Source: Escherichia coli
Lineage (GTDB): Bacteria; Pseudomonadota; Gammaproteobacteria; Enterobacterales; Enterobacteriaceae
Direction: 5' to 3' (one strand)
Assembly (NCBI RefSeq): GCF_003790525.1
Contig: NZ_CP033635.1
DNA: 64,000 nt
Within the stretch, counting starts at the first letter, position 1; each line of letters begins with the position of its first letter. The notes beneath the pieces were generated by a model. That model made no database searches. It was not told where the DNA came from and was given only the letters and a program-made list of their open reading frames with translations. This document shows, one piece after another, positions 23,354 through 29,702 of the stretch. The translations under genes were made by a program, and so were the position numbers.

Positions 23354-24574
23354 TTAGCTCAAGGTATGGGTTACTTCCTGAATTTTGTCACCATCCAGCT
23401 CATGTTCAAAGCTGCGCAGACGTTTGTAGATAGACATCAACTCAACCAGTGTGGTCCATGAGTTAATCAGGTACTGGAAAGCTCCGCGAACCTGACCAAA
23501 AACGTTGGTAATCTGCGTCATCAGGCCGAGCGTAATCGTACCGGCAACAATTGACGGAAACAGCAAGAACAAACCGAAAACGTTATCGACCTGCAAATAG
23601 AGAATGCGGGCGATGTTGAAATACATATAGTGAAAATAGAGGCGGAAATAGTTTTTCCGTACGGCGCTAAACAGCTCGCGTACCGTAGGCGGCGTCGCGC
23701 GCGTGGCATCGTCTTCACCATAAACCAGCTCTTTACGGTAGGCAGCCTCTACACGCTGGTTTTTAAACTCCAGCCCCGGCAGTTTGATCCCTACCACTGC
23801 CAGTAATCCGGTCCCCATCAGCGACCAGACGATAGCGGCAATCACCAGACCATACGGAATGTGCCCGACAATCGGCAGCTCCGGCACATGCGCGGAGAGC
23901 GTTACCAGCACCGGCAGGAAGGCGATCAACGTCATGATAGCGTTGATAAAGCTGACGCCCATATTCTCCAGCGTTGAAGCAAAACGCATGGTGTCTTCCT
24001 GCACACGCTGTGCGGCACCTTCGATATGACGCAGTTGTTGCCAGTTCGCCATGTAATATTCGTTCATCGCCGTACGCCAGCGGAACACGTAGTGACTGAC
24101 AAAGAAGTTGTTCAGCACACTGATCACCACCGCGATCAGCGCAATCCCCAGAAAGACGCCAACTTCGCGGTAAAATTGTTCGATGGTGACTTTATGCGGC
24201 GAACTTAGCGCGGTTTGAATCAGATCATAGAACGGCGCATACCAGGCGTTGACGGCGACCCCGACTTCCACCAAAAACCAGGTGACGAAGATGATCAGTG
24301 CAGTACCGAGTATTGACCAGTATTGCCAACGATGCGGGCTGTAGATAAACCAGAACAATGCAAAAAGTCCTACGCAAACAATGTAGTAAGCGTAAAAAAT
24401 CAAGAAATCCAACGACCAGAAACGCGCGGCGCTAATCGGGATCTGCCCGGAAGCTCCGGTGATACGCGCCACCCAATCCCCCCCACCGGCTTGCCAGAAG
24501 ATAACGGCAATCAATGCCCAAACAAAGGCCGAGAGAAAAAACGGTCCCGGCTTTGGGAAAAAAGACTTAAACAT
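23354..24574 (-). CDS. sbmA: Peptide antibiotic/microcin transporter SbmA
   Basis: ORF 23354-24580; start placed at [22 protein letters not shown]...; polytopic membrane protein, 406 aa. Confidence 0.92.
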
Positions 24575-24925
24575 ATGCACTCCTGCTAACTTCTTATCGT
24601 TTTAACAACTGCTGTGTATTAACCGCATGACCGCTACAAAGCGTCAGCCAAATGAAACCGCCCATTGTGACCCATAGCAAGGCGCTTAGTTCGCCAGCCT
24701 GAGCATAAGAATTGTTTCGACGGATTTCACAAACCAAAGATTGTTTACATAAGCGGATTAACACGCGCAGGATCACAAATGCAGGCATTGGTGAGCAGGA
24801 AAAAGATCGTGTTTACGCGCCGTTACGTTTTTAACACTATTATTGCACTAATTCGCCCTTTGCAATCCATCAATGAGTAGTATAAATACGCTCAGTTACC
24901 TTCATTCAATTTATGGACACCACCG

Positions 24926-26083
24926 TTGAAACGTAGTCTGCTTTTTTCTGCCGTGCTGTGTGCGGCGTCATTGACCTCCGTCCATGCGGCGCAGCCGATC
25001 ACTGAACCGGAGTTCGCCTCTGATATTGTCGATCGTTATGCCGATCATATTTTTTACGGCAGCGGTGCCACGGGGATGGCGCTGGTTGTTATCGACGGTA
25101 ACCAGCGCGTCTTTCGCAGTTATGGCGAAACGCGACCTGGTAATAACGTTCGCCCGCAGCTGGATTCGGTAGTGCGTATTGCTTCCCTCACCAAGCTAAT
25201 GACCAGTGAAATGCTGGTGAAATTGCTCGACCAGGGGACCGTGAAGTTAAACGATCCGCTAAGTAAATATGCTCCGCCAGGCGCACGCGTGCCAACCTAC
25301 AATGGGACGCCCATTACGCTGGTGAATCTGGCAACCCATACCAGCGCCCTGCCCCGTGAACAGCCCGGTGGCGCGGCACATCGTCCGGTATTTGTCTGGC
25401 CAACGCGCGAGCAACGCTGGAAATACCTTTCCACTGCCAAACTAAAAGCCGCGCCGGGCAGCCAGGCCGCGTACTCCAACCTCGCATTCGATCTGCTGGC
25501 AGATGCACTGGCGAATGCGTCCGGCAAGCCTTATACCCAGTTGTTTGAAGAGCAGATTACCCGTCCATTGGGGATGAAAGACACCACCTACACCCCCTCG
25601 CCGGATCAGTGCCGCCGTTTAATGGTGGCAGAGCGCGGTGCCAGTCCATGCAATAACACGCTGGCGGCAATTGGCAGCGGCGGCGTCTATTCCACGCCTG
25701 GCGATATGATGCGCTGGATGCAGCAGTATTTGTCATCTGATTTTTATCAGCGCAGTAATCAGGCAGATCGCATGCAGACGTTGATTTATCAGCGCGCGCA
25801 GTTTACGAAAGTGATTGGCATGGATGTCCCCGGCAAAGCGGATGCGCTTGGTTTAGGCTGGGTATATATGGCCCCGAAAGAGGGTCGTCCGGGGATTATT
25901 CAGAAGACAGGCGGTGGTGGCGGTTTCATTACCTATATGGCGATGATCCCGCAGAAGAATATTGGCGCATTTGTGGTGGTCACTCGTTCTCCATTGACGC
26001 GCTTTAAAAATATGAGCGATGGCATCAATGACCTGGTGACCGAACTGAGCGGGAATAAACCGTTGGTCATCCCCGCGTCCTGA
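24926..26083 (+). CDS. ampH: Penicillin-binding protein AmpH (class C beta-lactamase-like D-alanyl-D-alanine carboxypeptidase/endopeptidase)
   Basis: 385-aa ORF with signal peptide and SxxK motif (IASLTKLMT). Confidence 0.92.
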   Translation: MKRSLLFSAVLCAASLTSVHAAQPITEPEFASDIVDRYADHIFYGSGATGMALVVIDGNQRVFRSYGETRPGNNVRPQLDSVVRIASLTKLMTSEMLVKLLDQGTVKLNDPLSKYAPPGARVPTYNGTPITLVNLATHTSALPREQPGGAAHRPVFVWPTREQRWKYLSTAKLKAAPGSQAAYSNLAFDLLADALANASGKPYTQLFEEQITRPLGMKDTTYTPSPDQCRRLMVAERGASPCNNTLAAIGSGGVYSTPGDMMRWMQQYLSSDFYQRSNQADRMQTLIYQRAQFTKVIGMDVPGKADALGLGWVYMAPKEGRPGIIQKTGGGGGFITYMAMIPQKNIGAFVVVTRSPLTRFKNMSDGINDLVTELSGNKPLVIPAS

Positions 26084-26766
<683 letters not shown>

Positions 26767-26780
26767 AACCTATTTCTTCA

Positions 26781-29702
<2,922 letters not shown>

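Follow-up and report, generated by a model that had tools for sequence, protein, structure and literature searches.

A probable terminator of ampH embedded in the 3' coding end of the convergent gene iprA in Escherichia coli

Overlapping 3' untranslated regions (UTRs) of convergent genes can mediate cis-antisense regulation, for example at excludon-type loci. For the convergent pair ampH/iprA of Escherichia coli, neither a long antisense transcript nor a reciprocal pattern of expression is known. Overlapping bidirectional terminators, another arrangement found between convergent genes, are described as generating defined 3' ends in both directions and as having no resemblance to intrinsic terminators (bioRxiv 10.1101/2022.10.23.513370). 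Here we describe the junction of ampH and iprA, at which the two stop codons abut and ampH probably ends at a selected terminator of the Rho-independent type embedded in the 3' coding sequence of iprA.

The two genes lie in a 64,000-nt stretch of E. coli DNA that was analysed as a whole (the window; features are listed in Table 1). The TGA stop codon of ampH (26081-26083) is directly followed by TTA (26084-26086), the complement of the TAA stop codon of iprA (also called yaiV), and the + strand of the window reads ...ccc gcg tcc TGA TTA ata ctc... across a spacer of zero. The same abutment is annotated in RefSeq for strain SMS-3-5 (iprA 416894..417517, ampH 417518..418675) and for K-12 MG1655 (iprA 394506..395129 on the + strand, ampH 395130..396287 on the - strand), which bears out the original prediction of end-to-end stop codons. 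The region of iprA and ampH is 100% identical to the annotated SMS-3-5 genes, and the window and K-12 sequences are identical over the junction. The AmpH ORF matched Pfam Beta-lactamase (E = 9e-68), and the IprA/YaiV ORF matched Pfam HTH_46 (E = 6e-31; residues 153-220 of a 222-aa ORF). By domain content and orthology, AmpH is assigned to the class C beta-lactamase-like penicillin-binding proteins and IprA to the IprA/YaiV regulator family.

Table 1. Features at and around the ampH/iprA junction, in window coordinates.
Feature	Position	Strand	Basis
ampH CDS, 385 aa, DD-carboxypeptidase/endopeptidase AmpH	24926..26083	+	ORF list, Pfam, RefSeq SMS-3-5 and K-12
Weaker hairpin GCGGGAAUAAACCGUUGGUCAUCCCCGC, last ampH codons	26049..26076	+	folding; resampling p about 0.05, both senses
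Junction TGA+TTA	26081..26086	.	sequence, annotation, comparative spacer distribution
iprA (yaiV) CDS, 207 aa, stop TAA = complement of 26084-26086	26084..26707	-	Pfam, RefSeq start, homologs
Putative ampH terminator hairpin	26095..26127	+	folding, covariation, synonymous resampling, paralog comparison
U-rich tail UAUUCAUUU	26128..26136	+	sequence, tail statistics across species
ampH mRNA primary 3' end	26134	+	K-12 395,079, - strand; PMC10687069
Conserved RNA hairpin AAUGCCCGUCAAGGAUUUGACGGGCAUU, ehaB-iprA spacer	26726..26753	-	folding z = -5.35; Term-seq
ehaB/yaiT autotransporter gene, upstream of iprA, intact	26793..29702	-	ORF, Pfam Autotransporter, annotation names

The 222-aa version of the iprA ORF, with its ATG at 26752, was rejected as carrying a spurious N-terminal extension, and this extension coincides with the conserved RNA hairpin upstream of iprA. 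The start at 26707 agrees with RefSeq and with nearly all homologs (207-208 aa), in which the C-terminal end GKLVxINRLPxEY is invariant. That iprA is a yaiT-linked regulator, as originally described, is supported by paralogous loci elsewhere in Citrobacter genomes, at which an iprA-like gene again comes after an autotransporter gene. IS3, present in SMS-3-5 and K-12, is absent from the window. A HusR genomic SELEX peak, given as lying between yaiU and ampH, falls within yaiV and has no bearing on the junction. An Rfam search of 24500-27000 at permissive thresholds returned zero matches; neither the ampH hairpin nor the hairpin upstream of iprA is thus a curated RNA family.

The compactness of the junction is an old feature. 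Among complete E. coli genomes, 5,412 of 5,426 contained the 96-nt junction at >=95% identity. In Enterobacteriaceae species, ampH was convergent with iprA in all 80 loci compared, and the stop-to-stop distance was between -4 and +5 nt in 70 of the 80 species: -4 in 15 (with a shared TTAA), 0 in 14, 1 in 13, 2 in 16 and 3-5 in 12. Larger distances were found in the others (13-17 nt in six, 33 nt in one, 43-44 nt in two and 157 nt in one); the 157-nt case (locus L008) is a genuine insertion. Since distances of -4, 0, 1 and 2 are about equally common, any special meaning of a spacer of exactly zero was rejected. Other convergent pairs in about 50 kb around the locus have spacers of 16, 23, 39, 57, 77, 124, 126 and 139 nt; ampH/iprA is a local extreme in spacer length, yet not qualitatively different. 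Judged from these comparisons, the abutting stop codons are one state of an old, compact convergent junction common to most Enterobacteriaceae.

Downstream of the ampH stop codon, within the last 16 codons of iprA and on the ampH strand, there is a stem-loop followed by a U-rich tail. The stem-loop, AAGGCAAAC-GGUUG-AUAG-CGACC-A-GUUUGCCUU in ampH-sense RNA, consists of 14 bp (9 + 5) with one bulged A and a 4-nt loop, has a predicted folding energy of -20.9 kcal/mol, and is antisense to the iprA codons K-G-K-L-V-A-I-N-R-L-P-S; the tail is antisense to the codons E-M-N. Together with the last two bases of the stem, the tail forms UUUAUUCAUUU (8 U in 11 nt, interrupted), which is found in E. coli, Citrobacter and Salmonella. 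The interruptions reflect a second constraint on the U-tract, which has to specify Glu-Met-Asn-Lys on the opposite strand. The Enterobacter clade has a poorer tail, with only 3-4 U among the 10 nt that follow the stem, although its hairpin is no weaker; the median over 77 species sequences was -18.8 kcal/mol. A scan with consensus promoter and terminator patterns flagged only the inner 5-bp stem (26104-26117); with 5 found against a mean of 2.5 (sd 1.6) in shuffles, the scan was not clearly above chance and is uninformative alone.

Published 3' ends coincide with this structure. From the hairpin, a 3' end was forecast at K-12 395,077-395,085, ahead of our finding the published termini at 395,079 and 395,078. 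The former is listed as the 'Primary' 3' terminus of ampH in LB RNAtag-seq (PMC10687069, Supplementary Data 3) and the latter in re-analysed Term-seq data of Dar and Sorek (PMC10687069, Supplementary Data 2); the peak spans K-12 395,076-395,085, equivalent to window 26128-26137 (PMC10687069). The termini correspond to window 26134-26135, 7-8 nt past the last paired base and 51 nt after the stop codon. In the re-analysis of the Dar and Sorek data, the end was not significant in one of three replicates (PMC10687069), and it is missing from the Term-seq compilation curated by Adams et al. 2021; both observations are consistent with low expression of ampH. That compilation has no iprA end either, by gene name or by coordinate. 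The claim that the 3' ends of transcripts must overlap is thereby confirmed, the mapped end of ampH being 51 nt inside the iprA coding sequence. As for the statement that there is no room for separate terminators, no intergenic room exists indeed, but the probable terminator of ampH sits inside iprA codons, with the 3' ends just after it. In the ampH direction, the mapped end falls inside the coding 3' end of the neighbouring gene, a position that the original prediction had named as counting against it.

We propose that transcription of ampH, rather than running freely into iprA, would stop at the stem-loop and its U-rich tail. The same 42 nt would then encode the C-terminal wing of the winged-helix domain of IprA on one strand and serve as the terminator of ampH on the other, and both functions would be kept by selection through synonymous sites and through wobble pairs that work only in ampH-sense RNA. 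The mRNA of ampH would have a 3' UTR of 51 nt, complementary over its whole length to the last part of iprA.

Such a hairpin could simply follow from the conserved peptide of IprA, whose KGKL and RLP codons happen to be complementary: codon positions 1 and 2 of the conserved KGK and LP residues account for a large part of the pairing, and the peptide is part of Pfam HTH_46. The structure would then have no function of its own and the 3' end would be incidental. We consider this highly improbable. Synonymous resampling of the same peptide gave -8.0 +/- 3.6 kcal/mol relative to the observed -20.9 kcal/mol (p = 0.0004), and the lowest p among 30 control windows treated in the same way was 0.0075. 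iprA-like paralogs that encode a similar peptide without facing a convergent ampH folded to only -9.1 and -5.7 kcal/mol (two distinct sequences). The 3' end mapped in vivo, moreover, lies exactly 7 nt past the stem.

Base changes across species also speak for selection on the stem. In 77 distinct sequences, the outer stem was 99.5% paired in the ampH sense. Three pairs formed by third codon positions covaried: 13-43 (AU in 42, GC in 32), 19-37 (AU in 56, GC in 17) and 16-40 (CG in 75, UA in 2); the covariation score observed was reached by none of 500 shuffles. By parsimony on a tree built from ampH sequences, these pairs switched independently at least 7 to 11, 4 to 6 and 2 times, respectively. 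Repeated switches of this kind are not expected from the peptide alone, nor is the strand specificity of the G-U pairs: the alignment cells of the outer stem that deviate from Watson-Crick pairing comprise 20 G-U pairs and 2 mismatches in the ampH sense, versus 1 G-U pair and 22 mismatches in the iprA sense. At three loci a separate canonical terminator is present in the spacer, and there the embedded hairpin is below the median strength; it folds to -3.4 kcal/mol in Buttiauxella and -12.9 kcal/mol in S. arizonae (the weakest two of all) and to -16.1 kcal/mol in S. diarizonae, a pattern of relaxed selection seen in these three loci. On these comparisons, sites in the last iprA codons that look synonymous are under selection for the RNA structure of another gene.

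The asymmetry of the wobble pairs bears equally on the idea that the hairpin has its role in the message of iprA, where it might for example stabilise the mRNA or make ribosomes pause close to the stop codon, or that it is a terminator shared by both directions. The iprA-sense RNA does fold (-14.8 kcal/mol), with a synonymous-resampling p of 0.017. Single-base variants, however, still pair as G-U in the ampH sense only; the iprA-sense RNA then has C-A mismatches. Read in that direction, the stem finishes 8 nt short of the iprA stop codon (11 nt before the end of the stop), at which position termination would yield mRNAs without a stop codon; the bases following the iprA-sense stem are U-poor, and the LB RNAtag-seq and the Dar and Sorek sheets report no iprA 3' end. 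A role in the iprA sense therefore has the least chance of all the explanations weighed here.

The probable terminator of ampH has to be distinguished from an element that merely defines or protects a 3' end. In that alternative, transcription of ampH would be terminated further downstream, for example by Rho acting on untranslated RNA antisense to iprA, and the transcript trimmed back by 3'-to-5' exonucleases to a hairpin that owes its conservation to the protection of the mRNA. The ends recorded by Term-seq and RNAtag-seq are stable 3' ends of any origin, whether generated by termination or by trimming to a hairpin. In the Enterobacter clade, the U-poor tails are accompanied by a stem that is conserved and stronger (-22 to -26 kcal/mol). 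A second, weaker ampH-sense 3' end at 26083 (K-12 395,130) lies 7 nt after the hairpin at 26049-26076 (PMC10687069); this hairpin has no U-tract and gives no significant signal of selection in either sense, and ends defined by a hairpin thus do occur here. Against trimming, the E. coli end 7 nt past the stem and within UUUAUUCAUUU shows the classic geometry of intrinsic termination. Adams et al. list a site internal to ampH (395,316) among their Rho termination regions but not the site of the hairpin, which is absence of evidence only. The spacer terminators of Salmonella and Buttiauxella are canonical, carry U-runs and point in the same direction as that of ampH, suggesting that selection has acted on the termination of ampH at this place. 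Taking these points together, we regard processing as unlikely, and infer that the mapped end arises by termination rather than trimming.

Transcription on the iprA side has a different outcome. The conserved hairpin in the ehaB-iprA spacer lies 18 nt before the start codon of iprA; 34 of the 80 loci have it, and among them it shows compensatory changes as well as wobble pairs that fit only the iprA sense. A strong Term-seq 3' end at K-12 394,492 on the + strand (signal 0.998; window about 26721) is located 4-5 nt past this hairpin (PMC10687069). In LB, most transcription approaching iprA ends at this upstream hairpin, before the start codon, and it is likely that little iprA-side transcription reaches the junction under standard conditions. 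No hairpin with a U-run, as expected of an intrinsic terminator of iprA, was detected within 300 nt downstream of the gene, and neither of two gene-named tables, the LB RNAtag-seq and the Dar and Sorek sheets, lists an iprA 3' end (K-12 + strand, downstream of iprA). A mirror-image terminator of iprA in the 3' coding end of ampH was considered as well and rejected, the candidate at 26049-26076 not being significant (p about 0.05 in both senses). Transcripts of iprA would presumably continue antisense into ampH until stopped by Rho or another mechanism.

These observations allow a view in which the junction has no effective terminators and, with polymerases or transcripts colliding, works as a switch, through convergent interference or cis-antisense RNA, between the genes of a penicillin-binding protein and a regulator. 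The zero spacer and the lack of a detected iprA terminator or 3' end fit this view. Collision-driven termination at convergent genes of E. coli has been documented (bioRxiv 10.1101/2022.10.23.513370), and the ampH 3' UTR could form a duplex with 51 nt of the iprA mRNA. In addition, iprA is strongly inducible by cysteine (log2 fold change 4.5; PMC11408624), and transcription from the iprA side may matter under some conditions. We nevertheless judge such a switch improbable, because ampH appears to have a terminator of its own, kept by selection and matched by a mapped 3' end, because transcripts heading towards iprA in LB mostly end before its start codon, and because the wobble asymmetry shows selection for the structure of the ampH-sense RNA rather than for an element that works alike in both senses. 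A search of expression data for a link between ampH and iprA found none. With hairpin and tail placed inside the end of iprA, the ampH mRNA overlaps iprA by only 51 nt, and convergent interference at this locus is probably minor.

A further variant is that the embedded terminator is leaky or conditional. The ampH 3' UTR (26084-26134) is antisense to the stop codon and the last 16 codons of iprA, sequences present in any full-length iprA mRNA; this UTR, or read-through beyond it, could act as a conserved cis-antisense RNA on iprA, with reciprocal action by induced iprA. We give this little credence. If true, it would couple a cell-wall DD-endopeptidase to IprA, a regulator of oxidative stress and fimbriae, and a need for the overlap, beyond compaction, would explain the junction of a few nucleotides across Enterobacteriaceae.

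With termination of ampH at the embedded hairpin as the preferred reading, the locus is a clean example rather than a discovery: zero spacer between convergent genes does not mean absent termination. The dual use of the sequence is visible across a bacterial family as compensatory synonymous changes and strand-specific wobble pairs. Annotation of gene ends alone misjudges 3' UTRs, that of ampH being wholly inside iprA. Where the last part of iprA is deleted or recoded, in knockout collections or codon-optimised constructs for instance, the terminator of ampH would be lost, and polar or antisense effects are possible.

Compared with canonical intrinsic terminators of E. coli, that of ampH shares a 14-bp stem-loop, a 3' end 7 nt past the stem and, in E. 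coli, a tail rich in U, and it, too, follows the stop codon of one gene only. It differs in being located wholly within the coding sequence of the convergent neighbour, with no intergenic spacer, and in its interrupted U-tract. Two convergent pairs in the same region, proC/dgcC and ddlA/yaiZ, have spacers of 16 and 23 nt, likewise too short for a whole terminator, and their mapped primary 3' ends reach 42 nt into dgcC and 17 nt into yaiZ. These intrusions indicate that terminators reaching into convergent coding sequences are common in E. coli. Both pairs, however, retain some spacer, whereas ampH/iprA has none and its whole terminator is coding on the other strand.

The locus resembles the overlapping bidirectional terminators identified by SEnd-seq (Ju et al. 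2019) in that a convergent pair has a hairpin at its meeting point and overlapping 3' regions. In contrast to that class, the mapped end and the U-rich tail of ampH/iprA are found in the ampH direction only (LB RNAtag-seq, Dar and Sorek sheets), and the hairpin has been kept in the ampH sense rather than in both, the evolutionary signal being strand-specific. As at cis-antisense or excludon-type loci, the 51-nt 3' UTR of ampH is perfectly complementary to the 3' end of the iprA mRNA, but the overlap is short and bounded by a terminator. At the ampH/iprA junction there is probably an intrinsic terminator of the ordinary kind, in a dual-coding setting of unusual compactness, and not a conflict between two genes.

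The coding sequences of ampH and iprA (formerly yaiV) converge at window 26070-26090 (tccccgcgtcc TGA TTA ata). The abutting stop codons of the original prediction are borne out by this sequence and by RefSeq, in which the two coding sequences abut exactly in Escherichia coli SMS-3-5 and K-12 MG1655 (K-12 coordinates: iprA 394506..395129 (+), ampH 395130..396287 (-)); window 25300-26900 is 100% identical to SMS-3-5. The zero-spacer junction is real, yet public annotation already has it. The gene model first proposed for yaiV, a 222-aa ORF, starts too far upstream: RefSeq and almost all of the 120 homologs among the matches listed place the start of iprA at the ATG at 26707 (207 aa), so the 15-codon N-terminal extension (26708-26752, -) was rejected as not coding. 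The ATG of the longer ORF sits in the 5' arm of the upstream hairpin, a stem-loop preceding iprA. One 259-aa protein (P0071), from a single ENA metagenome contig, fuses IprA residues 1-126 to AmpH residues 254-385 with 100% identity; it would require an inversion across the junction, or an assembly chimera.

Features of the ampH/iprA region and nearby tight convergent pairs (window coordinates unless a locus record is named)
Feature	Position	Strand	Description
ampH	24926..26083	+	385-aa ORF, stop TGA 26081-26083; Pfam Beta-lactamase, E = 9e-68
iprA (yaiV)	26084-26707	-	stop TAA = complement of TTA 26084-26086; winged-helix Pfam HTH_46, E = 6e-31
embedded hairpin	26095-26127	+	RNA folding: AAGGCAAAC-GGUUG-AUAG-CGACC-A-GUUUGCCUU, 9 + 5 bp, -20.9 kcal/mol
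second, weaker ampH-sense 3' end	26083 (K-12 395,130)	+	LB RNAtag-seq; last base of ampH stop
upstream hairpin	26726-26753	-	AAUGCCCGUCAAGGAUUUGACGGGCAUU, 12-13 bp, folding z = -5.35; 18 nt before iprA start
dgcC/proC	locus record L084, 5819-5836		tight convergent pair, spacer 16 nt
yaiZ/ddlA	locus record L084, 806-830		tight convergent pair, spacer 23 nt

The embedded hairpin, in the ampH sense, begins 12 nt past the ampH stop and is followed directly by the tail UAUUCAUUU. Its whole length falls, on the opposite strand, within the final 16 codons of iprA (codons KGKLVAINRLPS, the tail corresponding to EMN), and no Rfam family matches it. Anatomically, it is a Rho-independent terminator for ampH within the iprA coding sequence. 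The original prediction had left no room for separate terminators; this does not hold, because codons of the neighbouring gene contain the probable ampH terminator.

The ampH 3' end was predicted at K-12 395,077-395,085 (-) before published data were seen. Bar et al. 2023 (PMC10687069) report a 'Primary' ampH 3' terminus at 395,076-395,085, with the dominant position 395,079, in RNAtag-seq of MG1655 in LB (adjusted p 5e-6 to 2e-10, three libraries); their own fold is the same -20.9 kcal/mol hairpin, and the ampH 3' UTR is given as 52 nt. The Term-seq data of Dar and Sorek, re-analysed in PMC10687069, place the end at 395,078 (significant in 2 of 3 replicates). Over 81 nt of the junction K-12 does not differ from the window, in which 395,079 becomes 26134, 7 nt past the last paired base. 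Adams et al. 2021 do not have the end, by name or by coordinate, in their curated Term-seq lists and give for ampH only a Rho-dependent region inside the gene at K-12 395,316; that region corresponds to window ~25897 (+), ~186 nt upstream of the ampH stop. Two independent datasets support the ampH 3' end and a third is without it, a pattern that could be expected of a gene with weak expression. The Term-seq check proposed originally goes against the predicted interference in the ampH direction, where the 3' end maps inside the iprA coding 3' end. Of the claim that the transcripts must overlap, the part that stands is that ampH mRNA ends inside iprA; the overlap is limited to 51 nt. The weaker 3' end at 26083 follows, by 7 nt and without a U-tract, a hairpin in the final ampH codons (26049-26076); it may mark a pause site or an intermediate of trimming.

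The main alternative is that termination happens farther downstream and the embedded hairpin then fixes the ampH 3' end as a barrier to exonucleases; tails poor in U in the Enterobacter clade point towards it. The hairpin carries marks of selection in the ampH sense. Across 77 distinct, gap-free 63-nt segments, the 14 proposed pairs were formed in 89.5% and the outer 8-bp stem in 99.5%, and none of 500 shuffles matched the observed pairing or covariation score. Three pairs join two third-codon positions, and all covary in the 77 sequences: Pro position 3 with Lys/Arg position 3 (AU 42, GC 32), Arg position 3 with Lys position 3 (AU 56, GC 17) and Leu position 3 with Gly position 3 (CG 75, UA 2). 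On a neighbour-joining tree of ampH sequence distant from the junction, at least 4 to 6, 7 to 11 and 2 independent changes are needed at these pairs; intermediate states occur in just a handful of sequences. Non-Watson-Crick cells of the outer stem comprised 20 G-U and 2 mismatches when read in the ampH sense versus 1 G-U and 22 mismatches in the iprA sense (all 14 pairs: 114 and 113 versus 6 and 221); the selected structure belongs to the ampH transcript.

Synonymous codon resampling of the same IprA peptide gave -8.0 +/- 3.6 kcal/mol versus the -20.9 observed (p = 0.0004), and p-values from 30 control coding windows were roughly uniform, with a minimum of 0.0075. Two Citrobacter iprA-like paralogs that do not face ampH encode a near-identical C-terminal peptide and have antisense folds of -9.1 and -5.7 kcal/mol. 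These second iprA-like genes, in C. farmeri and C. arsenatis (L085 2501-3124, L087 2501-3127; 55-59% identity), do not adjoin ampH and are again directly downstream of an autotransporter gene; autotransporter and iprA-like gene together look like a two-gene cassette that has been conserved. Three loci have a canonical hairpin and U-run in the spacer, each oriented to terminate ampH, and their embedded hairpins are all weaker than the -18.8 kcal/mol median (weakest overall, Buttiauxella at -3.4 and Salmonella enterica subsp. arizonae at -12.9; subsp. diarizonae, -16.1), which suggests relaxed selection beside separate terminators (n = 3 loci). The subsp. diarizonae and arizonae loci (L025, L064) have, besides the embedded hairpin, a canonical hairpin with AUUUUUG as ampH terminator in a 43-44-nt spacer after the iprA stop; at the arizonae locus the IprA match begins only at residue 34, with 58% identity, so iprA may be degraded there. 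The junction is already annotated and the ampH 3' end is present in a published supplementary table; the analysis adds a demonstration that the embedded hairpin, conserved throughout the family, is a dual-coding element under strand-specific selection.

Loci were fetched from 80 Enterobacteriaceae species via alignment of 18 diverse IprA proteins, and ampH is convergent on iprA in all 80. Stop-to-stop distances, corrected for split alignments, were -4 nt (shared TTAA) in 15 species, 0 in 14, 1 in 13, 2 in 16, 3-5 in 12 and 13-17 in 6; longer ones occur in Buttiauxella (33), two Salmonella subspecies (43-44) and one Citrobacter amalonaticus (157). Zero distance is one among several equivalent states that this old, compact junction takes. 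The IprA C-terminus (GKLVxINRLPxEY) is constant in length, which makes the iprA stop position ancestral. The junction was found in 5,412 of 5,426 complete E. coli genomes, and other convergent pairs within ~50 kb of the locus have spacers of 16, 23, 39, 57, 77, 124, 126 and 139 nt. In C. amalonaticus S646 (L008), a 157-nt G+C-rich, palindrome-filled (REP-like) insertion between the stops displaces the ampH end, and relic codons (...IVPAS, stop) still adjoin iprA.

On the iprA side, no terminator hairpin with a U-run was found within 300 nt past the stop, synonymous resampling of the hairpin at 26049-26076 was not significant (p about 0.05 on either strand), and the sheets naming genes (LB RNAtag-seq; Dar and Sorek Term-seq) contain no 3' end for iprA. 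The upstream hairpin is conserved at 34 of the 80 loci, 16-21 nt before the iprA start, with compensatory variants (GUCA/UGAC, GCCA/UGGC, ACCA/UGGU) and wobbles that fit the iprA sense only (13 G-U and 7 mismatches versus 1 and 19 antisense). It matches no Rfam family and has no U-tract after the stem in the iprA direction. A very strong Term-seq 3' end lies 4-5 nt past it (K-12 394,492, window ~26721, signal 0.998). In LB, transcription toward iprA mostly stops before the gene, and the hairpin could either terminate ehaB (yaiT, the upstream autotransporter gene) or act as an attenuator within the 5' UTR of iprA. A CyuR site is predicted just upstream, and cysteine raises iprA expression (log2 4.5; PMC11408624). 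iprA is inducible, and therefore transcription converging on ampH may vary with conditions. Interference or antisense regulation upon iprA induction is possible; nothing found supports it. ehaB is intact in the window (969-aa ORF). Over 7,722 nt the window differs from SMS-3-5 by 1 mismatch and by the absence of a 1.3-kb IS3 that interrupts the SMS-3-5 copy of ehaB; the K-12 site carries a different IS3 copy. The 6 bases at window 29016-29021 flank the IS on both sides in SMS-3-5 and look like a target-site duplication.

The ampH terminator is of the ordinary intrinsic type, though placed unusually compactly, and such placing is itself common. Nearby in K-12, proC has its 3' end 42 nt inside dgcC, and ddlA has its own 17 nt inside yaiZ; these primary 3' ends are inside convergent neighbours, and therefore terminators intruding on coding sequence are locally common. 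The overlapping bidirectional terminators described from SEnd-seq give ends both ways and are unlike intrinsic terminators in appearance. The ampH/iprA junction differs from that class in having its 3' end, U-rich tail and evolutionary signature in one direction only.
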